Shown here in pieces: positions 2,577-16,194 of a DNA stretch of 34,962 nucleotides. Position 1 is the first letter of the stretch; each line of letters opens with the position of its first letter. The notes beneath the pieces were generated by a model. The model made no database searches, was not told the origin of the DNA, and was given only the letters and a program-made list of their open reading frames with translations. Origin of the DNA: a virus (taxonomy: Duplodnaviria > Caudoviricetes); IMG/VR virus record IMGVR_UViG_3300037991_002149, positions 1-34,962 of that record; one strand, given 5' to 3'. The translations under genes and the position numbers were made by a program.

Positions 2577-3758
2577 ATGTCAAAGAAAAAAGGAATACCT
2601 GCAGAAAATAGTAACAATTACTTTAAAGCAGGTTGGAAACCTACAGTAGACTTTGACCACACAACAGGTGTAGGCGAAATTACACATGTAGGTACAGACC
2701 CAAACTACGAAAACAAGACAGATGAGATACTTCGTAGTTGGGGATTTGACCCAAAGCTATACGAAATTGATGGAATACTAAAAGTATCATCATGGAACGC
2801 ACAACTTAAAGGCGGTATAGTTGAAACATTCTACGCATTTAAAGGCAGTGTAAGAAGAAAATCTGCAAATCGTGACAAATACTTTAACTCGCTGTTTAAA
2901 CATGCTGTTAAGAAGCCGCCATTACCTAAGCATAAATTGTTTGGTGGTGATACAGCATTCTTTTTCTTTATGTCTGATTGGCAATTAGGCAAAGATGACT
3001 TCGGTGTAGAGAATACAATTAAAAGATATGACATAGCATTGCAAGATGCACTTGCTTTGTTAAAAAACTACAGGAAGATAGGTTACCAAATAGATGAAAT
3101 ATATCTAGTAGGAATGGGTGACCTTACAGAAAACTGTACAAAATTTTTCTACGACAGCCAACCCTACAATGTTTCGTTAAATCTTATGGAACAATACAGC
3201 CTAGCTAGAGCAATGATGTTTAAAACTGTAGAAACATTCCTACCTCATGCAGACAAAATTGTTTTGACAGGTGTTCCAGGTAACCATGGTGAGATGTCAA
3301 GAAGTGCAAAAGGTCAGGTATCAACAAGCAGGTTAGATAATTCAGACACCATGCACATAGAAATTATGAAAGAAATCTTTGATGCAAATCCTGATAGATT
3401 TAAAAAAGTCGAGGTAATAATTCCTGATGATTATCATCTTACGCTTGTGGTCAAAGAAAAGCAGATGTCTTTTACACATGGACACATGACAGGAGGCGGT
3501 GGAAACGCAGAAGCAAAAATAGAAAAGTGGTGGAAAGGACAGATGTATGGATTTCTTCCTAGTGCCAACTCAAATATACTTGTAACTGCACACTATCATC
3601 ATTTTCGTGCTAAGCAACAAGGCGATAGACAGTGGTTTCAATGCCCAAGTTTAGATAAGAGTTTAGATTTTACAGCTAGGACAGGCTTGTGGTCTCATCC
3701 TGGTGTATTAACACTGCTTGTTAATGACAGGGGTGCATCATTCCCTGTCATTGTTTAA
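2577..3758 (+). CDS. Calcineurin-like metallophosphoesterase (Mre11/SbcD-like)
   Basis: Motifs SDWQLGK, GDLTEN, PGNHGE, THGH, AHYHH; strong AAGGAGG RBS. Confidence 0.88.
   Translation: MSKKKGIPAENSNNYFKAGWKPTVDFDHTTGVGEITHVGTDPNYENKTDEILRSWGFDPKLYEIDGILKVSSWNAQLKGGIVETFYAFKGSVRRKSANRDKYFNSLFKHAVKKPPLPKHKLFGGDTAFFFFMSDWQLGKDDFGVENTIKRYDIALQDALALLKNYRKIGYQIDEIYLVGMGDLTENCTKFFYDSQPYNVSLNLMEQYSLARAMMFKTVETFLPHADKIVLTGVPGNHGEMSRSAKGQVSTSRLDNSDTMHIEIMKEIFDANPDRFKKVEVIIPDDYHLTLVVKEKQMSFTHGHMTGGGGNAEAKIEKWWKGQMYGFLPSANSNILVTAHYHHFRAKQQGDRQWFQCPSLDKSLDFTARTGLWSHPGVLTLLVNDRGASFPVIV
3723..3752. terminator. Hairpin at the convergent gene junction (possible bidirectional terminator)
   Basis: aatgacaggg...ccctgtcatt 10-bp stem where the + and - arms meet; immediately followed by TGTTTAAACA. 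Confidence 0.45.
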
Positions 3759-4127
3759 ACAAGCTGTAGCCAATTCTTCTATAGGTAGTAATATGCCTTT
3801 AGAATTATTGTCATCACCACCGACAACATCTTTGTCTGTGCCTACATACTTTCTACATAGGTCTTTTAATACAGCCACAGGGATAATGTAAGTCATTACA
3901 GGTTCATCATCTCTCACTAACATCAAAGCCCAATACTCTGCTTCGGTTACAGATAAGCCACTCTTTGTACCTTTGTATTCGTATTCTACAAAATGATTAC
4001 CTGTCTTTTCCCACAGGTGTCGCTCACTCTTGACTTCAATCTTAGTGCCTGTAAAAAACTCACTCAATTTTTGTTCCATTTCTAAACCTTTTGCTAGGTC
4101 TAAATCAAACTTTTTATTACTGCTCAT
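3738..4127 (-). CDS. PD-(D/E)XK-like nuclease
   Basis: E..L...KIEVKSE...TGNHFVE...SGL..TEAEYW pattern of a common phage nuclease family; likely start MSSNKKFDLDL. Confidence 0.7.
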   Translation of the reverse strand: MSSNKKFDLDLAKGLEMEQKLSEFFTGTKIEVKSERHLWEKTGNHFVEYEYKGTKSGLSVTEAEYWALMLVRDDEPVMTYIIPVAVLKDLCRKYVGTDKDVVGGDDNNSKGILLPIEELATACLNNDRE

Positions 4128-4533
4128 ACCAACAATCCTTACTGCTATTCCAATGATGAGAACCACTGTTGTAATATAACCAACTTGCAGTTTTAATATT
4201 CACGCTTGGGGTCTTACGATTACCCTCAATGTTTAATTTATTTTTAAGCCAAAGCCATGTGTTATCCCAAAATTGAAACAACCCAACATCAGTTGAGTTA
4301 TCTCTGTTTGTATTAACAGCATTTGGTCTGCCACTGCTTTCACAATAAATAATAAGTAGTGCCTCTCTTACATCTTCTTTTTTAAAATAAAGACTTACGC
4401 TTTCTTCCCATTCAATAACATGCGAAACTTTTTCGTTGTTGTTTAAACAAGAGGCATAAGCCTTTATTTCATCTAGTGTTTCTTGTGTTGGCGTTGCACA
4501 CAGTATCAACGAACTTAATACAACGCCATACAT
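4117..4533 (-). CDS. Lytic transglycosylase (SLT/Rpf-like) with N-terminal signal/anchor
   Basis: Catalytic CESSG, DVGLFQF...TW, and SGSHHW...C motifs. Confidence 0.85.
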   Translation of the reverse strand: MYGVVLSSLILCATPTQETLDEIKAYASCLNNNEKVSHVIEWEESVSLYFKKEDVREALLIIYCESSGRPNAVNTNRDNSTDVGLFQFWDNTWLWLKNKLNIEGNRKTPSVNIKTASWLYYNSGSHHWNSSKDCWYEQ

Positions 4534-4928
4534 TAGAACTCTGTACCGCTACTATCTTCGCTCTTAAATGTTTCTTTAAGTAAATCTCTAAGTCTATTTA
4601 CTTCATTCAATCTCTGTGTTTCAAGTTTCTTCATTATCTCGTGTAACTCACCTAACATAAGTGTAGCCTCAAACTTGTCCTCACTATTAACAAAAGTTAC
4701 ATCTATGTTGTATAAATCACCCCAACTAAGATAGATTTCGCCATAAGCACTAGGCAATGCAAAAGACATACCGCCTCTTTCTTTGTCTAATCTTTTAGCT
4801 AACCAATTACTGCTATCAATTTCTAGTTCAGTAAAGATACGAACTAAACCATTAAAGCCATAATCTGTATCGCTTATCTTAGGTTTACTGTCATCATTAG
4901 AATGGGATTTCATCTTGTTTTCTTCCAT
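4533..4928 (-). CDS. Hypothetical protein
   Basis: ORF track; AGAAAGGA RBS upstream of MEENK (4928); TAATG coupling to the downstream gene. Confidence 0.7.
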   Translation of the reverse strand: MEENKMKSHSNDDSKPKISDTDYGFNGLVRIFTELEIDSSNWLAKRLDKERGGMSFALPSAYGEIYLSWGDLYNIDVTFVNSEDKFEATLMLGELHEIMKKLETQRLNEVNRLRDLLKETFKSEDSSGTEF

Positions 4929-5211
4929 TGTATTTCCTTTCTTCAGCAGTAGTGATAATTGCATTGCACCTCACATCTGCCTTGTAATGTGTCTTTTCAT
5001 CTATCTGTTTAAACAAGTAGACACACATTTCATTATCTTGTGTGTCGATTACCAAAGGTCTTTCACTTTGCTTTGGGCATTGCATACCCTCGACAACTAA
5101 CTTACATCTTCTATCTAAAGGCGCAGGTTTATCAAAATCGTGTTCAGGATAACGCACCTTTAGTTTTTCTTTTAATCTTTCTATGTTGATACTTGTATGC
5201 TCTAAAGCCAT
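4897..5211 (-). CDS. Hypothetical Cys-containing protein with SSB-like acidic tail (DEIPF)
   Basis: ORF track; directly downstream of the Sak-like recombinase. Confidence 0.7.
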   Translation of the reverse strand: MALEHTSINIERLKEKLKVRYPEHDFDKPAPLDRRCKLVVEGMQCPKQSERPLVIDTQDNEMCVYLFKQIDEKTHYKADVRCNAIITTAEERKYNGRKQDEIPF

Positions 5212-6107
5212 GAACTAGGAACTTCTCTTTCACCTTTAGAACCAATGTAGCCTCCCCAACCACAACCATTTGATTGTCCATAGTTGGAACATGTAAAGTC
5301 AGGAATGTTTTTAAACTTAACATCACTTTCTTTTTTCTCTCTATTGTCCTCTATGTAGTCAGTTTTTTTACATTGAGGGCATACCTTTGTGTTGTCCTTA
5401 ACCTCGCCAAAGACATCTTCTACAATTTCTTTGTCGCTAGGTTTTTCTACAACTTCTTGTTGGTCTTGTGCTTGTACTTGATAAAACAAGTCTAAGAATT
5501 TATCTAACTCAAAACTTGACCACTTACCCATGTTTGTTTCATGTGTTTGTTTAAACAAGTTCCATGCCTCTAGCTTGTACTTAGTTCTAAGTTCACTATC
5601 TTTTTCAGCATGTTCTAATTCGTTAGTAATTCTTGCTAGGTAATCCTCTTTAGTAGTTTCCTTAACAACTTCTTTAGAAGAATTATCTAATTGTTTTATA
5701 ACTTCTTTAGCCTCTGCCTCTGCATAATGTTCTTCCTCTGTGCTTTCACCTACCCATAGATGTAGCCCAAGTCCAAACCTCATGCAACATCTTTTAATGC
5801 TGTCGCTAACTGCAAGTTTAAGAACTTCGCTTTCGGTATTGTTTTCAAGTTGATACTTACTTACATCACCAACTTCTTCTACAACACCCAAGCCCTCTAT
5901 TTCAAGTCTGCCTTTAGCACCGACAATGGCATTGTCTTTGCCTCGTACTTCCTCAAAAGTAAAGTTGTATTTGCCTCCAATGACTTCTACTAATCTTTTA
6001 GTGTACAAGTGATGAGGAACATATTCGCCATACTTACCCTTTGGCGCAGGTCTTACATCTTTCTTGTTAAAGTCTTTTATTAATTTCTTGTGTGTTTCTT
6101 TATCCAT
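5202..6107 (-). CDS. Rad52/Sak-like single-strand annealing protein with C-terminal Zn ribbon
   Basis: YV......RL..V.G, K.AVSDSIKRCCMRFGLGLHLW (Rad52/22 signature); CPQC...PDFTC...CGW. Confidence 0.85.
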   Translation of the reverse strand: MDKETHKKLIKDFNKKDVRPAPKGKYGEYVPHHLYTKRLVEVIGGKYNFTFEEVRGKDNAIVGAKGRLEIEGLGVVEEVGDVSKYQLENNTESEVLKLAVSDSIKRCCMRFGLGLHLWVGESTEEEHYAEAEAKEVIKQLDNSSKEVVKETTKEDYLARITNELEHAEKDSELRTKYKLEAWNLFKQTHETNMGKWSSFELDKFLDLFYQVQAQDQQEVVEKPSDKEIVEDVFGEVKDNTKVCPQCKKTDYIEDNREKKESDVKFKNIPDFTCSNYGQSNGCGWGGYIGSKGEREVPSSWL

Positions 6108-6310
6108 TTTTTACTATCCTTTTCTATAATTTTGTATACCCTTTGTCTACTTATATTTAAAACATCTGCAATTTCCTGTACTCTGAACCCGCTGTTTAAA
6201 CAGACAGCAATAGCCTTGCTACGATTTGCAATACAAACATCTAAGTTTGCTTTACTTCTCTCGTACAGTTCTTGTGATTGCTTTAACACTCTAATTTCTT
6301 TGTGCGACAT
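6080..6310 (-). CDS. HTH DNA-binding protein (sigma70 region 4-like)
   Basis: VQEIADVLNISRQRVYKII; GGAGGTG RBS. Confidence 0.85.
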   Translation of the reverse strand: MSHKEIRVLKQSQELYERSKANLDVCIANRSKAIAVCLNSGFRVQEIADVLNISRQRVYKIIEKDSKKWIKKHTRN

Positions 6311-6453
6311 TATTCTTTCACCTCCTCGTATTGTGATGATAAAACTTTATGACCTTTCATATTGTTTATGTACATAATTAAAAAACTTACTGCACCCTCG
6401 CCTTGTCTTACCAAGTTCTTAGTGTCAATCTCTATGCCCAAAGTTAATTTCAT
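6310..6453 (-). CDS. Hypothetical 47-aa protein (MKLTLGIEIDTKNLVRQGEG...)
   Basis: Hand-translated; fills the gap, with TAATG coupling. Confidence 0.65.
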   Translation of the reverse strand: MKLTLGIEIDTKNLVRQGEGAVSFLIMYINNMKGHKVLSSQYEEVKE

Positions 6454-6454
6454 C

Positions 6455-6748
6455 TTAGGCAATGTTTATCCTTTCTTGATGTACTTCTACAGGCAATGAT
6501 GTTTCGTATGCCGAAACTTGTATGCTAGGCAATACTTTCTTGTAGGTAATAAGTTTTGTAGTTGTATTGTTAAAGACTTCTAGTTGTTGAAACTGTGCCT
6601 TTGCAATGTCATTTATTTCTATGAGGATAGGATTTTCATCTATAATCTTATCTTCATCAGCGTTGTACTTATACAAAAACGATATAAGACTTCCTACTTC
6701 TAAATTATGAAACCCTCTTGCGTTCTTGTCTGCTTTTCCTACTGCCAT
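6455..6748 (-). CDS. Hypothetical protein
   Basis: ORF track; GGAGG RBS; TAATG coupling. Confidence 0.75.
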   Translation of the reverse strand: MAVGKADKNARGFHNLEVGSLISFLYKYNADEDKIIDENPILIEINDIAKAQFQQLEVFNNTTTKLITYKKVLPSIQVSAYETSLPVEVHQERINIA

Positions 6749-6900
6749 TATTCCTCCTCCTCTATTGCAATCACTTCTGCACTATCTAATGGATTAGAGT
6801 ATGGATTTTCCTCATAACATTTACTATCTTCAATAGCTTGTTCTTTTGTATCACCAAATCCAACTCTACTAACTTTAAATGTAATTCTATATCTAGCCAT
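6748..6900 (-). CDS. Hypothetical 50-aa protein (MARYRITFKVSRVGFGDTKEQAIED...)
   Basis: Hand-translated; GGAGG RBS; TAATG overlaps at both ends. Confidence 0.75.
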   Translation of the reverse strand: MARYRITFKVSRVGFGDTKEQAIEDSKCYEENPYSNPLDSAEVIAIEEEE

Positions 6901-7103
6901 TATTCCTCCTCGTATAATTCTTTAGCAACTTTTAATATGTTTTCGTTATGGTCTTTAACAAACTCATCTAATAGCTCTCTAATTCTTTGTGAGTTTGTTT
7001 TTTTAAGGTGAATTGTTTTTTGTACTTCTTGTCCACCACAAGCATTAGCTAACTTGATAGCCCATGCTTTAAGTAGCTTTGGCTCATCAAATATATTAGG
7101 CAT
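6900..7103 (-). CDS. Hypothetical protein
   Basis: ORF track; GGGAGG RBS. Confidence 0.75.
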   Translation of the reverse strand: MPNIFDEPKLLKAWAIKLANACGGQEVQKTIHLKKTNSQRIRELLDEFVKDHNENILKVAKELYEEE

Positions 7104-7132
7104 ATTTTTCCTCCCTTTACCTATTGTTGTGT

Positions 7133-7330
7133 TTAACTGTTTATTGGTTCTAATTCGTATAAAGAAACAATAAAGTAGTTAGAACCTGTATCTTTTAACT
7201 CTCTAACTTTTTGCCCTGCCTCCTCTTTGGTTGCGAACCTCCATGAGTAAACACTGCTGTCAAAGATTGATACACTCTTAACTAAGTATTTCATACCCAC
7301 TATGGTAACAGGTATTGAATTATACAACAA
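7133..7330 (-). CDS. Hypothetical protein (start uncertain, perhaps MKYLVKS at about 7294)
   Basis: ORF track; FATKEEA motif common in small phage proteins. Confidence 0.6.
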   Translation of the reverse strand: MLYNSIPVTIVGMKYLVKSVSIFDSSVYSWRFATKEEAGQKVRELKDTGSNYFIVSLYELEPINS

Positions 7331-7356
7331 GTATTTACTACGATTTCACTGCTTGT

Positions 7357-7557
7357 TTAAACAGCCTGTCTTTCTTGTTCTAGTTTTATATACTTATCAA
7401 TTAACTTTATGAAACTTCTTACTGCGCTTAACTCTACATCAAGCTCTTTTGTTTCACTGTCCATTTGATGTTGCTCTTTAGCAACAATCTTTTTAAAACC
7501 AATTAATTCTGCCTCCCATTTTTTTACTGCTATTCGTAAAACTTTTAACATTGTCAT
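7357..7557 (-). CDS. Hypothetical coiled-coil protein
   Basis: ORF track; AGGAGGT RBS; stop codon lies inside TGTTTAAACA. Confidence 0.7.
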   Translation of the reverse strand: MTMLKVLRIAVKKWEAELIGFKKIVAKEQHQMDSETKELDVELSAVRSFIKLIDKYIKLEQERQAV

Positions 7558-7639
7558 CTTTCCACCTCCTATTAATTAATGACCATGAAAGCCCTGTTAG
7601 AATTATCACTAAGATAATCCAATACCACCCATAGTTCAT
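7493..7639 (-). CDS. Possible 48-aa membrane peptide (MNYGWYWIILVIILTGLSWSL...)
   Basis: Hand-translated; one TM segment; weak RBS; overlaps the next gene. Confidence 0.4.
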   Translation of the reverse strand: MNYGWYWIILVIILTGLSWSLINRRWKDDNVKSFTNSSKKMGGRINWF

Positions 7640-7645
7640 TTACAG

Positions 7646-7810
7646 TTAGTCATTCTTTTTACTAACCATAAGTTCCATAGGAATTTTTTTACTTGTACGA
7701 CTTTGCAATAAACCCATATTGCGTTTAGGTGATTGTAATGATTTACTAACCATGTACCTTTTGCCACCTTTTTTAGATTTACTTGCTCTGCGTTGTTGTC
7801 TATTAGCCAT
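7646..7810 (-). CDS. Arg/Lys-rich peptide, 54 aa (MANRQQRRASKSKKGG...)
   Basis: GGAGG RBS upstream of ATG 7810; paralogous to the upstream peptide. Confidence 0.65.
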   Translation of the reverse strand: MANRQQRRASKSKKGGKRYMVSKSLQSPKRNMGLLQSRTSKKIPMELMVSKKND

Positions 7811-7919
7811 AAGTTTTTTTGCCTCCATTCATTCTTCCATTATCAGTAGGTCTTTTTAACCCATAGTAATGTCCACCTTTTTTGCTTTTAGCTTTTCTTC
7901 TTTGGTGTCTGTTCGGCAT
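7803..7919 (-). CDS. Arg/Lys-rich peptide, 38 aa (MPNRHQRRKAKSKKGGHYYGLKRP...)
   Basis: Hand-translated; GAGGAGG RBS; TAATG coupling. Confidence 0.7.
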   Translation of the reverse strand: MPNRHQRRKAKSKKGGHYYGLKRPTDNGRMNGGKKTYG

Positions 7920-8095
7920 TATTCCTCCTCATCTAATGGTTGATACCAAACAACGATACTGTCATCTAGTTCCAACTCGTATTGTGATTTATCTGCTAAT
8001 TCTTCTTTAGAGTATGTGCTTGTATATCCCCAATTAGTATGACCATAATTGTTTTCTACATACTCATCTATGTATTCAGTAATATCTCTACCCAT
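7919..8095 (-). CDS. Hypothetical acidic 58-aa protein (MGRDITEYIDEYVENNYGH...)
   Basis: Hand-translated; AGAAAGGA RBS. Confidence 0.7.
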   Translation of the reverse strand: MGRDITEYIDEYVENNYGHTNWGYTSTYSKEELADKSQYELELDDSIVVWYQPLDEEE

Positions 8096-8218
8096 CAATT
8101 TATCCTTTCTATAAAAGTTGCAATACCCAATAAAATTAGGTTATTGACTATGGGCATTAGTGCCACTCAAATTTTTTGAATGGCTCTAATCGCCTTAAAA
8201 TGCCCTGTTGTTTTTTAA

Positions 8219-8566
8219 TTAAGCTGTATTAGGTGCTAACATGCCTATTTCTTTATAAGCTATGTCGGCTAACGAATAATATATAGCTTGTTGATATTTA
8301 TATTGTTCATAGATTTGATAACCTAATTCCTCCATATAACTATCAAGCTTTTCTTTTATTTCTTCGTTAGTCTTACCAAGTTTCTTTAATCTTTGTGCCT
8401 CTAACACTGCGTTTTCGCCAAAATCCACAATTCTTTGTGTAGCAACAGGTTTGATTACCCTGCCATATTCAGCACGATTTACATTCTCTTTGCTGTAAAT
8501 TATGCCTTGTTCTACTAAATTGCGAAAGGTATTTATTTTTAACCCTTTGATTAAGTTATGCGACAT
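8219..8566 (-). CDS. Hypothetical protein
   Basis: ORF track; GAGGAGG RBS. Confidence 0.8.
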   Translation of the reverse strand: MSHNLIKGLKINTFRNLVEQGIIYSKENVNRAEYGRVIKPVATQRIVDFGENAVLEAQRLKKLGKTNEEIKEKLDSYMEELGYQIYEQYKYQQAIYYSLADIAYKEIGMLAPNTA

Positions 8567-8590
8567 TTGTCCTCCTCTATATTTTTGTGT

Positions 8591-8661
8591 ACAGCTACCA
8601 CTATAGTTGTAGATATTTATTTTATCAATAGATATTTACTATAATGGTAGCTGTTTAAACA
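8591..8661 (-). other. 17-bp stem hairpin abutting a TGTTTAAACA site
   Basis: acagctaccactatagt (8591-8607) / actataatggtagctgt (8638-8654); the one mismatch is G-U on the minus strand. Confidence 0.75.
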
Positions 8662-8810
8662 AAGACCTTTTGATACTTGTCTAGGTATGACACACTTCTG
8701 TCAAGCAGTCGATATGAGTTATAGACTTCGACTAGTCTTGCTATTTACCGATTAGCGTTTCCTTACCCCTACTAATCGTTCAAGGCTCTCTTTAATAAGT
8801 GAGGGCTTTA

Positions 8811-9310
8811 TAGATAGCTTGTAACACACAGTTGGTATAGGCGTAACAGTATTTACCATTATGTTGCAACTGCCTTTGACTATGTATTACAAGCTACCTA
8901 CTTTCAGTCGGTCAGCAACAGGGCTGTATTTAGCTTACCTCCTACTCATAGATAGCTTGTAACACACAGTTAGCGTACCAAACTGGAATTACATTGTTTA
9001 TATGGTAGTTCACGCCTCTAGTTCTAAGCTAGAGTTTCCAACCTTATGCATTCCTATGTGCTACAAGCTACCTACAAAATTAAACGAGATAATGTACTTC
9101 GTGTATGCGCTTGTTGGTTATCATACTTTGAGTACCCTAGCCGAGAGGTACATTAGTTCGTTTTTGTAGATAGCTTGATAGTATCTAGCTTACTTTCCCT
9201 ACCTGCGTATTTTGGGCTTACCTGTCGACAGTTTTTATATCTCTATAAAATACAAGGCATTGTCCGCACCTAAGCTAAGACTTTTCTGCCGATACTATCA
9301 AGCTACCTAC
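8811..9310 (-). ncRNA. Array of three inverted-repeat-flanked cassettes (TAGATAGCTTG...CAAGCTACCTA); putative processed structured RNAs
   Basis: Units 8811-8900, 8949-9074, 9166-9310; 20-22 bp stems; 24-bp direct repeat atagatagcttgtaacacacagtt at 8810 and 8948; no credible ORF. Confidence 0.65.
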
Positions 9311-9314
9311 CTGT

Positions 9315-9482
9315 TTAAACAAGTAGGTCATCACTTCGTGTCAAGTACATGTAATGGCATAAACCTTGTTGACATGTGTACTCAATCTTATTTTTTTCTT
9401 GATTGTATATTTTAATGTAAACATGATTTTTGATTTGCCATTCTGTAATTGTTTGCTCACAAAATGAACATTGTATTTCCAT
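9315..9482 (-). CDS. 55-aa putative Zn-finger protein (MEIQCSFC...TCQQGLCH...)
   Basis: Hand-translated; AGGAGGT RBS; stop lies within TGTTTAAACA. Confidence 0.75.
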   Translation of the reverse strand: MEIQCSFCEQTITEWQIKNHVYIKIYNQEKNKIEYTCQQGLCHYMYLTRSDDLLV

Positions 9483-9495
9483 TTATACCTCCTAA

Positions 9496-9712
9496 TATTT
9501 TTACGAGTAACTTAGTGTTTGATTGCAATTTGCCTTTTCAAGCGCTGTTCTTTGCAGGTAGTTTCGATAAGCTCACTATGGAATGAGGCAGTAGACTATT
9601 GGTAAGTATTCAGTGCCATTGGATAAATACAAACCTCACTAAAGCGTACAACAGGTAGTTTCTTTTGCGATACTATGAACAAGTACGAACCACTAAGCTA
9701 CTCGTAAAAATA
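9496..9712 (-). ncRNA. Stem-enclosed non-coding cassette (22-bp stem, 173-nt insert)
   Basis: tatttttacgagtaacttagtg / cactaagctactcgtaaaaata; insert carries caggtagtttc twice. Confidence 0.55.
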
Positions 9713-9786
9713 CTATTTATGCTCTTTGTTTAAACAAAGCGAAGGGGATAGTCGAGGCAACAACTATCCCAATCGCTATACATTAA

Positions 9787-10002
9787 TTATGTGTTTTGAC
9801 TTTCAGGCACAAAACCATAGAAGAAACCTTCCATGTAGATTTCTTTGTTGTCTTGTAGCCAACTAGCAACATCACTAGGTACTAATTCTAGTAATTGGTT
9901 GAAACTAGCCATGTTAATTACGCCACTATCTCTAACAATAGAGATTGCCTCGTACACATTGTCAGGGATAACTAACTTACCCTCTGTTGTTTTGGTAGCC
10001 AT
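9787..10002 (-). CDS. Hypothetical protein
   Basis: ORF track; AAGGAGG RBS; VRDSG..NM motif resembles DUF5049-like small phage proteins. Confidence 0.75.
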   Translation of the reverse strand: MATKTTEGKLVIPDNVYEAISIVRDSGVINMASFNQLLELVPSDVASWLQDNKEIYMEGFFYGFVPESQNT

Positions 10003-10027
10003 TTGTCCTCCTTTATAGTTACCACAA

Positions 10028-10051
10028 TGCTGTCTGTTTAAACAGACAGCA
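10028..10051. repeat. Perfect 24-bp palindrome centred on TGTTTAAACA
   Basis: tgctgtctgtttaaacagacagca. Confidence 0.95.
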
Positions 10052-10062
10052 CTAGCTAACTA

Positions 10063-10260
10063 CTAATTTTTTTCCTTGTCACTAACAATAGCTTTTAACT
10101 CTTTGTCAATGACATTACAATTAATAGTATGTTGTTTTTCGATTTCTTGATAAGTTTTATTCCAAAGATTATTTAATAATTTATCTTTTAAATCTATTAG
10201 CTCTTCCTCATCAAGTAACTCTGCACTTGCATGTAGAGTTTCTATAATCTTGTTTAACAT
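10063..10260 (-). CDS. Hypothetical protein
   Basis: ORF track; GGGAGG RBS. Confidence 0.75.
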   Translation of the reverse strand: MLNKIIETLHASAELLDEEELIDLKDKLLNNLWNKTYQEIEKQHTINCNVIDKELKAIVSDKEKN

Positions 10261-10270
10261 TTTGCCTCCC

Positions 10271-10414
10271 TTAATAGTCTGTATCTTCTAACCAAAGAAC
10301 TCTTAAAAAATCTTTTCCAAAAGCCTTTGTTAGTTTCTTTCTTACATCATCAATATTAGGATTAAAGTCTTTGCCGACCTCGATACCTATCTTGACAATT
10401 CTTTCTTCAGGCAT
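10271..10414 (-). CDS. Hypothetical 47-aa protein (MPEERIVKIGIEVGKDFNP...)
   Basis: Hand-translated; AAGGAGG RBS. Confidence 0.75.
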   Translation of the reverse strand: MPEERIVKIGIEVGKDFNPNIDDVRKKLTKAFGKDFLRVLWLEDTDY

Positions 10415-10440
10415 GTTGCCTCCTTACCTTTATTGTGTTT

Positions 10441-10663
10441 GATAAGAGTTTATAGAATAGGCTGTTGCCCTCCTTACTTGATAGCAAGACTTACATATTG
10501 CAATCGCTGTACTATCTTCTTGGCAACTTAGTTTATCAATCGCTCTCTCGTTTTGTTCTTCTAACTCTTTCACATTTGCGATACTTACAATCGCTGTTGT
10601 TAGCCATTCCAAAACAAACTCGTTCTTTCGTATCAAAACCTGCCTATTCTATAAACCCTTACC
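10441..10663 (-). ncRNA. Stem-enclosed cassette (22-bp stem, 179-nt insert with 3 x CAATCGCT)
   Basis: gataagagtttatagaataggc / gcctattctataaacccttacc; both mismatches are G-U on the minus strand. Confidence 0.55.
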
Positions 10664-10741
10664 CTACATTAAGTTAGTAATTACCTTGTTGTAACTACTA
10701 TAAACCTCGCTGTTTAAACAACGAGGTCTAACTAATTACAA

Positions 10742-11152
10742 TTAGAATGGCGGTTCGTTTTTACTGTCATACTTACTTGTACTATCAGTATTAACAAACA
10801 ACTCTGCATAATCTAGCTTGGATAGTGTGCGCTTTGCTTCTTCCATAGTTAGAAAGTGCTTGTCTTTTGGATTACCGCAATCGGTATCTTCCATAGACAC
10901 GCCAAAGTTATGATTAGATACAGTTGAACTGTTAGCTAGTCTTATATCTCTAAAGAATAAGTCATCAGTTAACCCTGCTCTATGAACTTTGATACTGTCC
11001 TCTATGTATCTAGTGTCTACATTGATACCTAGTTTGCCATTAAGTGAACGCCATTGCTGTAACGCATGGTCATTACTCTCTGCCGAAACTATATGTACAT
11101 CAATAAACTTACTAAATACACATTTAGCTTGAACTACATATTGTTCTACCAT
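10742..11152 (-). CDS. Hypothetical protein ending in NEPPF
   Basis: ORF track; AAGGAGG RBS. Confidence 0.8.
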   Translation of the reverse strand: MVEQYVVQAKCVFSKFIDVHIVSAESNDHALQQWRSLNGKLGINVDTRYIEDSIKVHRAGLTDDLFFRDIRLANSSTVSNHNFGVSMEDTDCGNPKDKHFLTMEEAKRTLSKLDYAELFVNTDSTSKYDSKNEPPF

Positions 11153-11238
11153 TTAATGCCTCCTTAATATTGTGTGAATATTTATCTGTTGATAAATATC
11201 GTTGAACGCTCATTGTTTAAACAAGCGCTCTACGATAC

Positions 11239-11949
11239 TTATTGGTAATCTTTACGCAATTTAAGCGGTAAGTCTACAACTGTAGAAGAACCACAAGCCA
11301 TGCAACGAAAGTTATCGCCAACTTTCTTGTACACTGCCATAGATACTCGACTAATTAAGCCGAAACCCTGCGCAATAGATTTGTCACTAGCACCGACACA
11401 CGCCTCTGCACCTGTACATTTGACCGCAACTGTAGTTGAACCTGCACCCTCTCGTTGCTTGATAGCATAATGAGGAAGTAAGCCTAACTCCTTGATGAAG
11501 TCCTGTATAAGTAGAGTAAACTGCGCACCTGCAACTGTTGCTGTAGGAATACCCTCCGCACCTAGATAATCCATAATGATTTTCTTAAAGCGGTTGTTAT
11601 GTCCTGTACCAACAGGCAATATTGCATGAGTTACCTCGTGTGCAACAATCTGCGCTGTTTCGATACTGTCGGCAAGTGAAGTGCCTGTACGAGTAGGGCA
11701 TATAAAGATTTCTCTAACATCTCCCTCGCTGTGTTCTTCGTAATGACATACGCCAATAGCTTTGGCATTACCTTTTGGCATAAAGCCCATAGATAATTTG
11801 ATGACATCACGCTTAACTTCGCATACAAACTCTTCTTCGATTTTATCGTAGATAAAGTCTGCAACTTTGTTAAGCCATTCTTCACGATTACCTTTGAAGA
11901 AATGAATTTCTTCTTGTGTATCTGTACTAGATTTCTGTTTAGTTTCCAT
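11239..11949 (-). CDS. SprT-like zinc metalloprotease with C-terminal Zn ribbon
   Basis: AIGVC, EIFI.P, AHEVTHA (HExxH) followed by GH...F; C-terminal C...C...CMAC; AGGAGG RBS. Confidence 0.8.
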   Translation of the reverse strand: METKQKSSTDTQEEIHFFKGNREEWLNKVADFIYDKIEEEFVCEVKRDVIKLSMGFMPKGNAKAIGVCHYEEHSEGDVREIFICPTRTGTSLADSIETAQIVAHEVTHAILPVGTGHNNRFKKIIMDYLGAEGIPTATVAGAQFTLLIQDFIKELGLLPHYAIKQREGAGSTTVAVKCTGAEACVGASDKSIAQGFGLISRVSMAVYKKVGDNFRCMACGSSTVVDLPLKLRKDYQ

Positions 11950-12338
11950 TGTGTTTGCCTCCTATATATTTACTATACACTTACAAAAATTATAAGTGTA
12001 TTTCTTATTGCTCATTGTTTAAACAAGCAATAAAAAATATAAGGCATAAATAGAATATGCGAACAGTGTCTAAGGCGCTTTGTTTCTGTTAGATTAGTGC
12101 AACTGTTGTCTAATGATTTCTGTAACTAATCTTTTTTCGCTAGTGTTGTTGTTTTACGCTTTTCAGCCAATCTTCGCTAGAAGTAGAGTTCTTACCGATT
12201 ACACTCGGTCGTTCTCTATGGGATTTAGCGCCTGTATTTAGTATTTAATTGAACAGCGCCTCATCTGTACTTGCCTCGAACACTTTCTTAGGCTTTTTTA
12301 AGTAGTTGTCTAAGTCCAACTCTATTGTGTTATTAATA

Positions 12339-12366
12339 ACATTACTAGGTCTGTGTTTTATGCCAA
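12339..12366 (-). promoter_or_regulatory. Candidate early promoter TTGGCA-16-TAATGT
   Basis: The minus strand reads TTGGCA taaaacacagacctag TAATGT, upstream of the early arm with an AT-rich region further upstream. Confidence 0.35.
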
Positions 12367-12628
12367 CTTATGTTGACATATTTGATAAAAAATAATTAGG
12401 TGGAAAGCCTATAAACATTGACTATTTCAGGTGCATGAAAAATTATTTATTTTTTTACAAAGAAATCTTCAATTTGCGGTGTCATTTCTTAGGCGTAACT
12501 TTCTGCGCCTAAGATTTTGTTAGGTGTTCCTGTTGGAATTTTAACCGATAATATTTTGCCGATATTAATGTTTGTCTATCCCCTTACTGTTACTGTTTAA
12601 ACAACTGCCAATCTTTACCAAACTGTGT

Positions 12629-12688
12629 ACACAATATGTTGTGGTACTATATATAGTGTGCATACCTACACAACACAAGATGTAGGCT
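12629..12688. promoter_or_regulatory. Three NrdR-box-like palindromes
   Basis: acacaatatgttgtgg (12629), gtactatatatagtgt (12644), acacaagatgtaggct (12673) against the consensus acaCwAtATaTwGtgt. Confidence 0.55.
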
Positions 12689-13120
12689 TGTAGCCTATAA
12701 ACACAAGGGCTTGGGGTAGGGTTTAATGTGGGGGTGGTCGTTATTTATATGTGTGTACTCTTAAAATATGCTGTTAACTAGGCAGTAAAATAGCCCTCTA
12801 AAGTGCTTGTTTAAACACTTATAGTGATTATCTTAAATAAGTAGAAACTTAATACAACTAACCCTGTGTCATCCCTCCCAACCGATAACAAATCTGTTTA
12901 TGACTTATTGTAAATATATGAAGTAATAGCCTCTAACGCTAGTTACTATGGTCAGGCAAGTCCACTTTATTGAAGTTCTTATCTGATAAATCTTTTCTAG
13001 TGCCTGAAATCTATCATGTTTGTTTTTCTACTATACCATAAAATTATTTTATGTGGGGATTTCCTTACAAAGTAAAGGAGGAAATCTAAGTAAAAAAATC
13101 CCTATCTTATTTTACAGGTA

Positions 13121-13129
13121 TGTTATAGT
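13121..13129 (+). promoter_or_regulatory. Extended -10 promoter TGtTATAGT
   Basis: Same element recurs at 13263 and 13516. Confidence 0.5.
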
Positions 13130-13262
13130 GGATGTTAGGAATATTCATTTTCCTTTCAAGGACATGTTTAGCCCTTTCTATTGTGTATACGAAATGGGTG
13201 TGACAGGCAACTGCTACACCCATTAGTATTATCAAAAAAAAATTTTTTTTACACCTACATTC

Positions 13263-13271
13263 TGTTATAAT
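13263..13271 (+). promoter_or_regulatory. Extended -10 promoter TGtTATAAT
   Basis: Consensus match, with an A-tract/T-tract palindrome upstream (13234-13250). Confidence 0.6.
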
Positions 13272-13276
13272 AAATA

Positions 13277-13514
13277 TGCTTTTAGAAAGTCTAAAAGTAT
13301 CGTGTATGAGGATATGCGATTAGAAAAGAAAGAAATTGCTTTTCATCATATAGCACTTGTGATTATGTGATTGCTGAAAGTAAATTTATTTTTTCTTTTT
13401 CTTTCACAGAGTAGTGAAGGTGCGAGGACCTTTAATTGAGGACACAACTGCCTTTATACTCGCAAACAGTATTGGACATGCTGTACGAACAGAACTCCAC
13501 TTCGGTGGAGTTTT
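13277..13514 (+). ncRNA. Candidate ~240-nt small RNA
   Basis: Bounded by an extended -10 and a UUCG terminator; internal hairpins; no credible ORF. Confidence 0.45.
13491..13514 (+). terminator. Rho-independent terminator
   Basis: agaactccac-TTCG-gtggagtttt, a cUUCGg tetraloop with a T tract. Confidence 0.8.
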
Positions 13515-13515
13515 G

Positions 13516-13524
13516 TGTTATAGT
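13516..13524 (+). promoter_or_regulatory. Extended -10 promoter for the late/packaging operon
   Basis: TGtTATAGT upstream of the AGGAG RBS and ATG 13551. Confidence 0.55.
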
Positions 13525-13550
13525 GATAAGAAGCAACCACAGGAGTTAAA

Positions 13551-13622
13551 ATGCCAATGAGCAAAAAAGGTAAAAAGAAAAGATACTCTAGCAAACGCAA
13601 GAGTAAATCAATGGGTTACTAA
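13551..13622 (+). CDS. 23-aa basic peptide MPMSKKGKKKRYSSKRKSKSMGY
   Basis: AGGAG RBS; TAATG coupling. Confidence 0.65.
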   Translation: MPMSKKGKKKRYSSKRKSKSMGY

Positions 13623-13879
13623 TGGCTACATACCAAGGTAAATCTGTAACTTTAAATTCGCCTCGTGCAATTAAAAAAGGTGAACCTGGTTATGGTCGTA
13701 AAAAATCTATGGTTTATGTTAAGGATGGCGACAAAGTTAAAAAAGTAATGTTTGGCGACCCTAACATGAAAATTAGAAAAGGTAACAAAGAAGCAAGAGC
13801 ATCCTTTCGTGCTAGACACAAATGTGATACTGCAACAGACAAAACTACAGCTAGGTATTGGAGTTGTAAAGCATGGTAA
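13622..13879 (+). CDS. Conserved basic phage protein (DUF6321-like)
   Basis: KKVMFGDPNM...RASFRARHKC...ARYWSC..W motif. Confidence 0.75.
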   Translation: MATYQGKSVTLNSPRAIKKGEPGYGRKKSMVYVKDGDKVKKVMFGDPNMKIRKGNKEARASFRARHKCDTATDKTTARYWSCKAW

Positions 13880-14049
13880 AAGTAAAAGGTGTTGATGTAT
13901 CTAAGTTAACTAAAAGTCAACAGAATGCTATGAAAAAACATTCTAAGCACCATACAAAAAAACATATACAATATATGACAAACTCTATAAAAAGAGGTAG
14001 TACTTTTACTAAAGCACATAAAAATGCTCAGAAGAAAGTAGGTAAATAA
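13873..14049 (+). CDS. 58-aa His/Lys-rich protein (…MKKHSKHHTKKHIQYM…)
   Basis: Hand-translated; coupled to both neighbours. Confidence 0.7.
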   Translation: MVKVKGVDVSKLTKSQQNAMKKHSKHHTKKHIQYMTNSIKRGSTFTKAHKNAQKKVGK

Positions 14050-14192
14050 TGGCAGGTAGAAAAGTAAGTTGGAAGTGGGGAGGCAAAACTTATAGTGGAA
14101 CACTCATACCTAGTATGGAAACTAAGACACATAGGTTTGCAAGAACACACAATGGCAAAATTAAAAAATTACCTAAACGAAAAAAGAAATAG
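14049..14192 (+). CDS. 47-aa basic protein (MAGRKVSWKWGGKTYSG...)
   Basis: Hand-translated; TAATG coupling; the KVSWKWG pattern resembles small Tudor/SH3-like domains. Confidence 0.65.
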   Translation: MAGRKVSWKWGGKTYSGTLIPSMETKTHRFARTHNGKIKKLPKRKKK

Positions 14193-14291
14193 TTGAATAT
14201 AGCCTGTCCTGTTTGTCAGGAATATTTGCAGGTGGTTAAACTTAAATTAAAGTGCAAAAATAAGAAATGCAAAAAATATGACAAAAACTAA
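14193..14291 (+). CDS. Possible 32-aa Zn-finger peptide (CPVC...CKNKKC)
   Basis: TTG start directly after, and in frame with, the upstream TAG; four Cys. Confidence 0.4.
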   Translation: MNIACPVCQEYLQVVKLKLKCKNKKCKKYDKN

Positions 14292-16194
14292 ATTATGTTT
14301 CGCTAAAGGATGTCATAATATATTACGACCACCTAAGAAAAAATTTTGTTCATCTACTTGTTCTAAAAGCTATCACAACGCTGTATATCACGCTAAACAA
14401 AAAGGTGCTGTTTATGAAATTGACCATGATGGCAAACCTGTAGCAGAAGGTAATGTACAAAAACGCAGAGGCAAAGTTTACGAACAGTTAGTAGAAAAAA
14501 ATCTAGGACCTTTAATTTTAAAAGGTGACATGCTTAAACAAGATGCAGCAGAGTTACTAGGTTGTACAAAAGCTGCACTTAGTTACGCATACGCTGCTTG
14601 GGTAGAAGATATGGAAACAAAGTCTAAAGCAGAAAATTGGACTATACCTGCTAAAGCAGAAAAATCATTAAAAGACTTTAAACAATTTAGAGATAGATAT
14701 TTTCAAACAGAAACAGGCGACCCATACGAAACACCTGAATTTCACATTAGGTGGATAAAATCTATTTTAGAAGCTATAGAACATGGTGACCAACAGATGA
14801 TATTGTCACCACCTAGACATGGCAAAACAGATTTGCTTATACATTTTGCAGTATGGTTGATTGTGCAAAATCCTAATGTTAGAATTTTGTGGGTAGGAGG
14901 TAATGAAGAAATTGCTAAGAATGCAGTATCTTCTGTAATTGACCAACTAGAGAATAATGAGAAATTAATTGAAGAACTCTGTCCTCCTGGAAAAACTTTT
15001 AAGCCAACATCACGAACTGGAAAAGCGTGGTCGCAGAATGGGTTTACTGTTGGCACTCGTACTGTTACTGGTATTAAGTCACCTACCATGGTTGGTATTG
15101 GTCGTGGAGGAAAAATCTTATCAAGAGATTGTGACATCATTATCGGAGATGACTTGGAGGACCACTCATCAACTATGCAACCTGCTTCAAGAGAAAACAC
15201 TAGAAACTGGTGGACTACAACATTGTCAAGTCGTAAAGAGGAACATACAGCAATAATCGTAATTGGTTCTAGGCAACATTATGATGACCTGTATTCTCAT
15301 TTGTTAGATAACGAAAGTTGGAAAACATTAGTCGAAGAAGCACATGACACATCATGCAACATTGCAGATTGGGATGAAGAAGCACATACAGAGTGTATGT
15401 TGTGGACAGGTAAGCGTACTTACAAATGGTTAATGGACAGAAAACGAGCAGCAGAAACTACTGGAGGTAGAGCAATATACGAAATGGTATATCTTAATGT
15501 AGCTATGCCTGATGGACTTGCTTTATTTGAGCGTGAAGAAATAGAACAATGTCGTGACCAAAGTAGAGCGATAGGTGACATACCAATCAATGTAAGACTT
15601 ATAGCAGGACTTGACCCTGCATCTACAGGTTATCAAGCTGCAGTGTTATGGGGTTACAATACTGAAACAGGTACTTTGTTTTTAATAGATATAGAAAACA
15701 ATTTAGGTGGTGGAATACCACAAGCATTAGAGATAATTAAAAAATGGTGGACAGAGTACAACTGTAGTCATTGGGTTATAGAAGAAAATGGATTTCAAAA
15801 AGCTATACGACAAGATGTATCTATAAAAGATTTTGCTAATAGGCATGGCGTATTTTTAGAAGGACACGAAACACGAAATCAAAAGTTTGACCCATTGTTT
15901 GGTGTAACAGCTATGCGACCAATGTTTGCTGATAAACTAATTAATTTACCTTATAGTGGATTTGAAGCACAAGAAAAGATAAACTTATATACAAGTCAGT
16001 TAGTGTATTTTAGTTCTGCTAGAAACAAAAGCAAAAGTGTGGGAACTAAAACAGACATTGTTATGGCTAGTTGGTTTCCAATGAGAGCAATTAGGCGTAT
16101 GCAAAAAGAACGATTTGCAGAACTAGGATATGACTACAATCCTAGTTTTTCTGACTATAATCCTAGTAATATAGATTATGATAATTGGAGATAG
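14278..16194 (+). CDS. terL: Terminase large subunit with N-terminal Zn-finger/HTH extension
   Basis: Walker A SPPRHGKT, Walker B IIIGDD, GSRQHYDD coupling motif, RNase H-like AGLDPA...IEENGFQ...TDIVMA. Confidence 0.93.
   Translation: MTKTKLCFAKGCHNILRPPKKKFCSSTCSKSYHNAVYHAKQKGAVYEIDHDGKPVAEGNVQKRRGKVYEQLVEKNLGPLILKGDMLKQDAAELLGCTKAALSYAYAAWVEDMETKSKAENWTIPAKAEKSLKDFKQFRDRYFQTETGDPYETPEFHIRWIKSILEAIEHGDQQMILSPPRHGKTDLLIHFAVWLIVQNPNVRILWVGGNEEIAKNAVSSVIDQLENNEKLIEELCPPGKTFKPTSRTGKAWSQNGFTVGTRTVTGIKSPTMVGIGRGGKILSRDCDIIIGDDLEDHSSTMQPASRENTRNWWTTTLSSRKEEHTAIIVIGSRQHYDDLYSHLLDNESWKTLVEEAHDTSCNIADWDEEAHTECMLWTGKRTYKWLMDRKRAAETTGGRAIYEMVYLNVAMPDGLALFEREEIEQCRDQSRAIGDIPINVRLIAGLDPASTGYQAAVLWGYNTETGTLFLIDIENNLGGGIPQALEIIKKWWTEYNCSHWVIEENGFQKAIRQDVSIKDFANRHGVFLEGHETRNQKFDPLFGVTAMRPMFADKLINLPYSGFEAQEKINLYTSQLVYFSSARNKSKSVGTKTDIVMASWFPMRAIRRMQKERFAELGYDYNPSFSDYNPSNIDYDNWR

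Follow-up and report, generated by a model that had tools for sequence, protein, structure and literature searches.

An apparently undescribed modular array of non-coding RNA cassettes framed by likely RNase III-type stems in a group of uncultured phages

Introduction

The R1.1-type signals of T7 early RNA, where a phage early transcript forms 22-bp helices whose proximal pair is A-U and whose distal pair is U-G (PMC1540722, PMC3867540; here and below citations refer to the accessible part of each source), are close described counterparts of the locus reported here. This locus is an array of repeat-flanked non-coding RNA cassettes on the minus strand of the phage record IMGVR_UViG_3300037991_002149, at positions 8662-9311 (the window, that is, the whole stretch of DNA analysed, has 34,962 bases). 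The T7 sites are short hairpins between protein genes, whereas the array has a reusable two-arm frame whose copies stand back to back and enclose about 161 swapped families of non-coding cargo. DicF, encoded in the dicBF operon of the E. coli Qin prophage, is also a phage-derived small RNA (sRNA) freed from a polycistronic transcript with the help of RNase III (10.1101/2023.04.14.536235). Unlike the array it is a single, invariable antisense RNA that depends on RNase E for its mature end, it has no repeated frame or library, and its ends are not set by one helix. The tRNA-like-domain-only (TLD-only) transfer-messenger RNA (tmRNA) of mycobacteriophage DS6A is a precedent for an inhibitory RNA mimic made by a phage (PMC4131195, PMC11915505), and relatives of the window carry message-less tmRNA ends, some of them beside an array. 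The DS6A molecule is however a single RNA without a stem frame, and such an end, missing from the window, is one of many module types in the arrays.

At rRNA processing stalks structured RNAs are freed from their precursor by an RNase III-family enzyme. Polycistronic clusters of small nucleolar RNAs (snoRNAs) likewise yield several structured non-coding RNAs from one precursor through such an enzyme (PMC12045711). Unlike the array, these systems are eukaryotic or housekeeping, their content is fixed and they have no interchangeable slots; snoRNAs are moreover C/D or H/ACA guides. In T4-type phages, promoter stem-loop (PeSL) cassettes are short repeats that bound swappable modules in the early region and flank protein genes. 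PeSLs are promoters around protein genes, whereas the modules described here are non-coding RNAs in RNase III-type frames; by analogy, the arms of the array and the TGTTTAAACA boxes at its edges may act like PeSLs in module shuffling. Finally, tandem interspaced guide RNA (TIGR) arrays, both dual-repeat and stem-loop, are phage-encoded tandem arrays processed to small RNAs; their units have about 36 nt, in which box C (CCA) and box D (UG) bound two spacers of 8-12 nt each, they need a Nop-domain protein encoded next to them and they have no long duplexes (PMC12045711). The array in contrast has long duplexes and long folded cargos (predicted units of 66-125 nt), and a Nop domain occurs in none of 29 records; a preliminary description of the window, made from its letters alone, had likewise seen no TIGR-style C/D boxes.

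Here we show that the array consists of conserved, covarying stems around cargos that are exchanged between near-identical phages, that it has no coding or guide features, and that some modules are represented among RNA-library contigs of one study. We found no such array in the open-access literature searched, which included the accessible part of a 2025 review of phage sRNAs (PMC12197685). The arm words are also missing from the readable supplements of PMC10690425, whose alignment archives or one of whose tables may catalogue single modules. The modular RNA system is real, widespread and apparently undescribed: its ingredients (RNase III sites, DicF, TLD-only tmRNA) are known, and the cassette library is the part that the open-access literature did not yield.

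Results and discussion

Layout of the array

The preliminary description had reported six copies of one repeat in alternating orientation, forming three stems around inserts of 46, 84 and 105 nt between 8811 and 9310. Exact repeat positions and a stem search agree with this: TAGATAGCTTG begins at 8811, 8949 and 9167, CAAGCTACCTA ends at 8900, 9074 and 9309, and no further exact copy of either word occurs within the 34,962 bases. On the minus strand the contiguous stems span 8810-8901 (unit 1, 23 bp, 46-nt insert), 8945-9078 (unit 2, 25 bp with a 22-bp core, 84-nt insert) and 9166-9310 (unit 3, 20 bp, 105-nt insert). The non-Watson-Crick stem pairs are all G-U on this strand, seven as reported before when counted from 8811 and nine with the outermost G-U pairs of units 1 and 2. 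Folding, suggested earlier as a check, gave each unit a z score of -5.6 to -5.8 on the minus strand versus -4.0 to -4.6 on the plus strand, with 0 of 200 shuffles folding as well, and the strand so favoured is that of the neighbouring small genes. The covariation noted in unit 3 was also found in an alignment of 10 homologues, in which both partners have changed in 5 of the 20 closing pairs and in 7 of the 10 pairs internal to the cargo, while 99.3% of cells pair, versus 28-44% with slid partners.

The interval 8811-9310 does hold the array, but its true extent is larger. The full array covers 8662-9311, is bounded by a TGTTTAAACA box on either side and comprises seven modules, of which three are inserts, two are linkers and two are segments further downstream. 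The two linkers, at first overlooked as cargos, are conserved modules, as are the two downstream segments. Each module has 2-22 distinct homologues in other phages, linker B being present in 65 distinct versions. An open reading frame (ORF) for 55 aa with a ribosome-binding site and a CxxC word lies directly upstream (9315-9482, minus strand), so that the array sits inside an early polycistronic region.

Conservation of the frame and exchange of cargos

Pattern scans of viral sequences yielded about 120 and 65 stretches and those of metagenomes 118 stretches of about 180, and a protein-based search added 26 loci. The window's own sub-loci, an E. coli operon, six non-phage hits in metagenome-assembled genomes (MAGs) and four duplicate handle loci were left out of the counts; among the counted loci some overlap or repeat the same contig. 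With arms of at most 3 mismatches and at least 18 of 19 pairs, a fuzzy finder located 606 units in 315 of 331 sequences, versus 1 unit in the reversed sequences. The 335 distinct inserts and 131 distinct linkers of these units fall into 161 BLAST families, of which 74 are singletons and 17 occupy both slots, a count that is approximate because the largest BLAST family is a chain of several types. The rarefaction curve of cargo families is still climbing (Chao2 about 194). The preliminary description had proposed a search of related phage contigs for the same stem with other inserts, and this is what the survey found.

The arrays are widely distributed. In 27 of the 29 records the carriers have terminases with 52-100% identity, and two phages of 65-72 kb carry arrays without that terminase. 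A second phage lineage, with an AAA ATPase-like gene (a label taken from its P-loop motif) in place of the pair of genes for an annealing protein and a helix-turn-helix (HTH) protein, has the same arrays at 58 loci, for example L022 and L005. No protein family is common to all arrays, the best occurring at 58 of 153 loci. Same-strand ORFs lie near the array at 211 of 245 loci, and the array sense is that of the genes in all 53 and all 58 cases for the two commonest protein families. Among 185,579 species genomes there were 7 matches, only 1 of them a true unit, on a 3-kb phage-like contig, and we regard the array matches in MAGs as chance or as a misbinned phage contig.

Close relatives whose flanks are 92-98% identical hold different cargos at the same place. 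L121 is 93.9% identical to the window up to 8668 and 92.8% from 9299, with different inserts between; the flanks of L122 lie within the range of 92.8-95% identity and enclose other cargos, and L122, L124, L125, L230 and L306 each differ again. There are 120 module orders among the 175 loci with at least 3 segments, and in DNA contigs of three runs (X2-X4) an insert is replaced exactly between the arms. No cargo is inverted among 466 segments, and none of 29 records has the tyrosine recombinase domain PF00589 (the search of the relatives did not extend to serine recombinases). We therefore infer homologous recombination at the arms and boxes as the route of exchange.

As regards transcription signals, promoters dedicated to the arrays are not supported as a rule (12 of 315 upstream regions versus 18 on the other strand). 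A test for stand-alone operons gave an uninformative 0 of 177 loci, some same-strand open frame being present within 800 nt at all 177. One RNA array, at L296:1179-2070, has a promoter-like site upstream, a U-rich terminator-like end and long flanking ORFs on the opposite strand, and is possibly a stand-alone non-coding operon. In a sister clade (L137, L138, L140, L141, L145) single units with a variant outer arm stand immediately ahead of a ribosome-binding site.

The stem as an RNase III-type site

An idealised RNase III substrate measures 22 bp from distal box to distal box and is two-fold symmetric (PMC3867540). G-C is excluded from proximal box position 2, the third pair from the cut, U-G is needed in the distal box, and one half-site is enough (PMC1540722); the B. 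subtilis enzyme has the same preferences (10.1101/2023.03.12.532304). The predicted cut of the array stems was set at the stem centre, after GGUAGCUU, and the position of the ninth pair was derived from the text numbering of PMC1540722 and PMC3867540. In 317 units the stem is a regular helix that measures about 22 bp, with lengths of 19-27 bp and a mode of 22-24. Of the distinct half-stems, 92 of 94 inner and 42 of 43 outer ones have A-U or U-A at pair 3; at pair 9, U-G stands in 63 of 94 inner and 24 of 43 outer ones and G-U in none. The two U-G pairs are symmetry mates, and both lie outside the search seed. Even among the 40 divergent inner halves, with at least 4 of 9 positions off the consensus, pair 3 is A-U in 38 and pair 9 is U-G in 25. 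G-U pairs outnumber A-C pairs in the stems by 852 to 22, an excess that is partly circular because the orientation was picked by stem strength. No RNase III gene was found in the phages (0 of 29 records), and the enzyme would therefore be that of the host.

Several points weigh against this assignment. The half-stems are related by descent, which inflates the counts; conservation at outer positions -3 to 6 was built into the search patterns; and A-U at pair 3 is favoured by a genome of 34% GC, pairs 7 and 8 being A-U in 31-32 of the same 40 divergent halves. Unit 3 of the window has C-G rather than U-G at its inner pair 9. Box rules also differ between species, the distal box being dispensable for Aquifex RNase III (PMC3074117). 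Finally, 81 of 94 inner and 41 of 43 outer halves have G-C or C-G as pair 1, which adjoins the predicted cut, contrary to the A-U preference in E. coli, where G-C beside the scissile bond slows RNase III 7-14-fold with binding kept (PMC1540722); A-U beside the cut is an E. coli preference, and the enzyme of this host may differ. With these points taken into account, the near-constant stem is likely a two-fold symmetric RNase III-type site. The reading of the repeats as RNase III-type handles, put forward in the preliminary description, is well supported by this symmetry and by the proximal and distal box pattern retained in divergent stems.

Predicted products

In the proposed first step a host RNase III dimer would cut in the middle of the 22-bp helix and leave 2-nt 3' overhangs. 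Each insert would then retain a closing stem of 9-11 bp, from the inner half, with a 2-nt overhang, and each linker would close by pairing the outer halves of consecutive units. In line with this, of 21 distinct closures by linker ends (the outer half of a 3' arm with the outer half of the next 5' arm) 17 have all 9 pairs and the other 4 have 8 of 9. Central cuts that free both inserts and linkers would account for an outer half that is nearly fixed, an inner half that is free to co-vary, and cargos that occur in either slot. Since linkers would close by their outer halves, a nested alternative fold of units 1 and 2 would yield the same products.

Read along the minus strand, the array starts after a palindromic TGTTTAAACA box at 9312-9321; in 7 of 9 box-bearing relatives checked it begins 12-15 nt past such a box. 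Unit 3 has its 5' arm at 9291-9310 (predicted cut 9300/9299) and its 3' arm at 9166-9185 (predicted cut 9175/9174), which would release an RNA of 125 nt (9175-9299). Its 105-nt cargo (9186-9290), with 9 distinct homologues in 14 loci, contains a covarying hairpin and a self-complementary 10-mer with variants. Linker A (9079-9162), a linker or an insert depending on the phage, carries a self-complementary 8-mer and has 22 distinct homologues in 37 loci and a fold z score of -5.98; its predicted RNA (9065-9174, 110 nt) is closed by the outer half-stems. The 5' arm of unit 2, the consensus arm of the family, lies at 9054-9075 and the 3' arm at 8948-8969, with predicted cuts at 9065/9064 and 8957/8956. 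Between them, the 84-nt cargo (8970-9053; 12 distinct homologues in 31 loci) has a T-loop-like GGAAAC word and a covarying hairpin, and the predicted RNA is 108 nt long (8957-9064). The commonest module, linker B (8902-8947), combines an AGUA/GAA S-turn-like motif, a covarying stem and an invariant CCCUGU loop in a predicted RNA of 66 nt (8891-8956). Unit 1 follows, with its 5' arm at 8879-8901 (predicted cut 8891/8890), a 46-nt cargo at 8833-8878 known from 2 distinct homologues in 3 loci, and its 3' arm at 8810-8832 (predicted cut 8819/8818), for a predicted RNA of 72 nt (8819-8890).

Downstream of these units, module 6 (8745-8809; 14 distinct homologues in 20 loci) is a linker-type RNA whose hairpin has a 14-15-nt loop AGG...GGAAAC, and full arms flank it in relatives. 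Module 7 (8662-8744; 11 distinct homologues in 14 loci) is a degenerate fourth unit with a variant closing stem round the same cargo that is kept in relatives. A second TGTTTAAACA box (8652-8661) marks the downstream edge, and alignment blocks with L121, L122 and L124 stop at 8661-8668.

Nature of the cargos

No combination of a ribosome-binding site and an ORF was found in any of the 161 cargo families, and the word GGAG is depleted (5 of 116 families versus 13.8 in shuffled sequences). By contrast, T-loop-like words occur in 13 of the 116 families versus 4.0 shuffled, ACACGA in 7 versus 1.6 and CCTTTC in 9 versus 0.5. The opposite-strand control for CCTTTC (154 loci) is uninformative because ribosome-binding sites themselves create this word. 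The AGUA/GAA module with the invariant CCCUGU loop, seen in the window as linker B, has its 65 distinct versions spread over 115 of 315 loci, with 0 on the opposite strand; its stem is paired in 46-53 of 54 sequences per position, versus 75 of 216 when slid. The AGG...GGAAAC-loop hairpin of module 6 occurs in 40 of 315 loci, and in a family of 20 sequences with a CAU anticodon-like hairpin 5 of 9 pairs covary. The labels T-loop, S-turn and anticodon-like are general motif names and not Rfam results. Palindromic 8-mers are present in 38 of 116 families versus 24.1 expected, and 6-mers are not enriched (69 versus 67.3). Homodimerisation through palindromes, suggested by two window cargos and by the 8-mers, is not claimed, as a family-wide test for conserved but variable palindromes gave 9 versus 9 in a mirror-repeat control (54 families).

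The best pointer to function comes from relatives of the window. Message-less tmRNA ends of 75-83 nt with G3-U70, the alanine identity pair, are encoded in 5 of 29 records, three sequence types of them 17-114 nt from an arm. Seven distinct sequences and two more have the features of a TLD-only tmRNA (G1-C72, G2-C71, G3-U70, A73, a T-arm and no message domain). Such ends were seen in array-bearing phages at L226:1501-1581, L227:1501-1582 and L228:1501-1583 and in L348, L349, L350, L027, L017 and L204; they have different inner hairpins and no encoded CCA. For the TLD-only tmRNA of DS6A, inhibition of tmRNA, perhaps by titration of SmpB, is cited (PMC4131195, PMC11915505), and by analogy the ends in relatives may bind SmpB. 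This suggests shape mimicry of host RNAs for most cargos.

Other results argue in the opposite direction. A message-less tmRNA end was found 0 times in the window itself. Taken over all families, CAU loops show no enrichment (3 of 116 versus 2.1), and the folding of the cargos alone is modest (median z -0.9). Rfam returned only chance microRNA matches for window positions 3700-14300, and for sets of 18, 20 and 20 array loci no gathering-level match and one sub-threshold tmRNA 3' end, in L081. Compared with the rRNAs and tRNAs of the E. coli rrnH operon, the cargos gave matches of 11-17 nt at most. The CCCUGUU loop and its complement are both absent from that operon. On balance, judging from motifs and covariation, most cargos are likely mimics or decoys of host RNAs by shape, with an anti-Shine-Dalgarno minority that would act by pairing.

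RNA contigs

Contigs of relatives from a metatranscriptome run (X1) cover window modules at 8745-8812, 8968-9042 and 9189-9310 together with pieces of early genes. The locus L296 shares several modules with the window, and X1 contigs are identical to it at 1229-1373 (depth figure 291) and at 1758-2033 (depth figure 637); such figures cannot rank genes. At three adapter-bearing X1 contig ends, which agree with one another, the first mate is opposite to the predicted RNA, as in a stranded library. The X1 contig ends on L296 (1209, 1373-1381, 1758 and 2033) include none at a predicted cut. There is no X1 contig on the protein genes of L296 and no identical one on its two full units; gaps between contigs prove nothing and were not used. 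Counting against release as proposed, this evidence comes from one run of one study and from relatives, no RNA end or cut is visible in it, and the strandedness of the library is not on record. What it provides is a weak hint of transcription in the predicted sense. The earlier proposal that variable small RNAs arise from an early transcript has thus gained from wide conservation, cargo swapping and RNA contigs; release itself is predicted from the stems.

The phage and its host

The record has 34% GC and is about 85% complete. Among the 41 ORFs of the window, PHROGs and Pfam identified a terminase, a single-strand annealing protein, an HTH protein, a transglycosylase, an exonuclease and very large probable virion proteins. 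The closest cultured matches of the terminase are Streptomyces phages (24-25% identity) and those of the exonuclease are Gordonia, Arthrobacter and Streptomyces phages (27-31%), with actinophages making up most of its 765 matches. The phage is uncultured and likely marine, and blastn of window 8560-10800 against 50,697 cultured phages gave no match. Related phages have the ribosome-binding consensus AGAAAGGA, with the word AGAAAGG at 140 of 990 starts. A consensus of this type suits a 16S tail of the Gram-positive kind. Phages of Actinomarinales have a GC content of 33.6-36.5% (PMC7771536). Because of the actinobacteriophage matches, this consensus and the similarity in GC, the host is probably a marine actinobacterium. 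Two results tell against this host: no direct link was found, the best cultured protein matches being only 24-31% identical, and WhiB was found in 0 of 27 relatives.

Reportedly, Actinomarinales have neither toxin-antitoxin nor CRISPR systems (PMC7771536), a question on which the accessible part of 10.64898/2026.04.03.716425 contributes nothing. If that host is right, takeover of the host is therefore likelier than counter-defence, and an anti-defence reading of the cargos is weakened.

Proposed explanation and its rivals

In the explanation that we propose, RNase III would release the cassettes, and the repeated arms and flanking boxes would serve as recombination homology through which cargos are gained, lost and reordered. 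From the stem and exchange data we hold these two steps to be quite probable. In a third step, the weakest, the shape of most cargos (T-loop, S-turn, CAU anticodon-like hairpin, message-less tmRNA end beside the array) would let them bind to proteins or complexes of the host, and the anti-Shine-Dalgarno loop of a minority would base-pair with ribosome-binding sites; their joint effect would be to turn the translation and RNA metabolism of the probably actinobacterial host towards the phage. For the explanation as a whole, with mimicry of or decoying for host RNAs as the main role, we lean slightly towards acceptance. Guides, also listed among the possible products at first, found no support, decoys or mimics being the best description for most cargos and base-pairing for the anti-Shine-Dalgarno minority.

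An alternative keeps RNase III release but makes most cargos trans-acting antisense sRNAs with host mRNAs or rRNA as pairing partners, so that the library would shut off the host in the manner of DicF. CCTTTC loops, with the enrichment given above, complement the ribosome-binding word AGAAAGG, the invariant single-stranded CCCUGU loop of the commonest module looks seed-like, and DicF itself, which RNase III together with RNase E frees from a prophage transcript, pairs with ftsZ and manXYZ mRNA (10.1101/2023.04.14.536235). We nevertheless find this alternative unlikely, since what most cargos have is helices that covary internally and words of tertiary motifs, not long seeds free of pairing, since none of 990 phage starts has the complement of the CCCUGUU loop upstream, and since antisense matches do not exceed shuffles: 161 family representatives gave 3 minus-strand matches with a score of at least 16 in 1.1 Mb of flanking phage DNA, versus 1-5 for shuffled sequences, and none of at least 18. 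The stems might otherwise be T7-like signals for processing or stability of early mRNA, the enclosed sequence being cis elements or neutral filler. This would suit the polycistronic early region with its nearby same-strand ORFs and the five RNase III signals of T7 early RNA (PMC3867540). It is rather improbable given that several sites stand back to back without an intervening ORF, that cargo families show compensatory changes and move between slots and between phages as divergent as the terminases indicate, and that the long ORFs flanking the L296 array are on the opposite strand. About as improbable is a further idea, in which the helices bind RNase III or another double-stranded RNA-binding protein uncut and the whole array serves as a scaffold or sponge, its cargos being presented as loops or multimerising by way of self-complementary words. 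G-C by the scissile bond, the commonest pair here, acts in E. coli as an antideterminant of catalysis but not of binding (PMC1540722), a 276-nt RNA contig spans modules joined by degenerate arms in L296, and palindromic words co-vary in two window cargos. Yet linker closure by outer halves and slot interchange make sense mainly after cutting, and the palindromes did not exceed their mirror-repeat control.

Two further readings are disfavoured. That the cargos are guides of a phage-encoded RNA-guided effector, CRISPR- or TIGR-like, is suggested by a tandem constant handle around a variable interior and by the maturation of some CRISPR guides by host RNase III (PMC12045711), but it is very improbable in view of inserts of 18-151 nt in recurrent folded families rather than unique spacers, of the test above, in which inserts matched phage DNA no better than shuffles, and of the missing common protein family and Nop domain. 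The preliminary description had already set the array apart from CRISPR, correctly in view of the inverted arms and the lack of a CRISPR repeat in Rfam searches; a weak Csn2 match was the only one (E 0.006, 11 neighbouring ORFs). For TIGR-Tas, PF01798 was found in 0 of 29 records; divergent Tas proteins may escape this Pfam Nop model, but the loci also share no protein family throughout. An element acting as DNA, be it a set of invertible segments, a repeat of MITE/REP type or single-strand hairpins like attC, would explain the alternating inverted repeats and the exchange of cargos at the arms. It is barely credible, however, in the face of cargos that are never inverted, records without tyrosine recombinases, stems without extrahelical bases, fixed U-G pairs legible only in the gene-sense strand, and a single true unit in the species genomes. 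A shufflon or integron attC array was rejected on the first two of these grounds and on the lack of ORFs in the cargo families. Families of miniature inverted-repeat transposable elements (MITE) and repetitive extragenic palindromes (REP), a match to which would have undone the initial proposal, were set aside as well, as were enterobacterial repetitive intergenic consensus (ERIC) sequences, the interiors being unrelated, the single true unit lying on a phage-like contig and Rfam giving no match. As for retron RNAs, PHROGs and Pfam showed no reverse transcriptase among the 41 window ORFs of this incomplete record, and relatives were not searched for one.

Known phage small RNAs are mostly single and fixed, whereas here a nuclease site of the host would have become a frame into which folded RNAs from a large and exchangeable set are plugged. 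The phage group concerned is uncultured and abundant, with 906 terminase relatives at E <= 1e-50. We also put forward, as a speculation that falls short of an even chance, that these phages hold an open-ended natural library of RNA aptamers, in which a universal RNase III frame accepts any folded RNA and the host enzyme matures and stabilises it. Such a library would do with RNA what early proteins do in host takeover: its members would imitate parts of tRNA, tmRNA and rRNA and in this way block or divert the translation of a streamlined marine actinobacterium, with at least about 160-190 effector RNAs in the phage group. If the cargos are mimics, each family marks a host RNA-protein interaction worth blocking, which would amount to over a hundred natural RNA inhibitors. 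The frame is also a ready design for obtaining several stable small RNAs from one transcript.

Other features of the window

A separate RNA module of 223 nt lies a short way upstream of the array at 9493-9715 (minus strand), with a 25-bp closing stem, two GAAACU-containing repeats and a variable middle; it has no Rfam match, and its homologue in L296 is covered by X1 contigs. Modules of about 220 nt also occur in L010, L071, L124, L230, L245, L272, L296 and L306 with closing stems of 21-25 bp. The closing-stem sequences are unrelated between phages, and the hairpin-like GAAACU repeats are order-swapped in L124. Another block, at 10441-10663 (minus strand), has a 22-bp stem round 179 nt and overlaps a 68-aa ORF (10430-10636); it has no homologue in the fetched loci and is missing from close relatives. 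At 4383-4471 (minus strand), within the transglycosylase gene, an 18-bp stem with 53 nt inside surrounds a TGTTTAAACA box. ARAGORN reported no gene in the window.

A sigma-70-type promoter-like site within a 17-bp hairpin (8600-8628, minus strand), a 10 of 12 consensus match only, would serve the next gene downstream of the array. The promoter-like hairpin with this site (8591-8654) and a related one at 7297-7340 (both minus strand) stand ahead of small early genes.

The TGTTTAAACA word is present in 19 copies, versus 0.11 expected from shuffles, and 16 of them lie between 2.9 and 12.9 kb. The copies are at 2893, 3752, 4440, 5006, 5548, 6193, 7354, 8652, 9312, 9727, 10035, 10711, 11214, 12016, 12594, 12808, 19183, 27203 and 33849. 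Some are inside genes, including the HTH gene (6080-6310), several are at hairpin tips, and alignment blocks with close relatives often stop at them. The word is clade-specific, with two or more copies in 23 of 112 long loci, and is possibly an operator or a module-exchange site. Lastly, the non-coding interval 12860-12970, which separates the divergent blocks of genes, has matches in X2-X4 to contigs of high depth from other phages and may be a conserved genome-end or packaging region.

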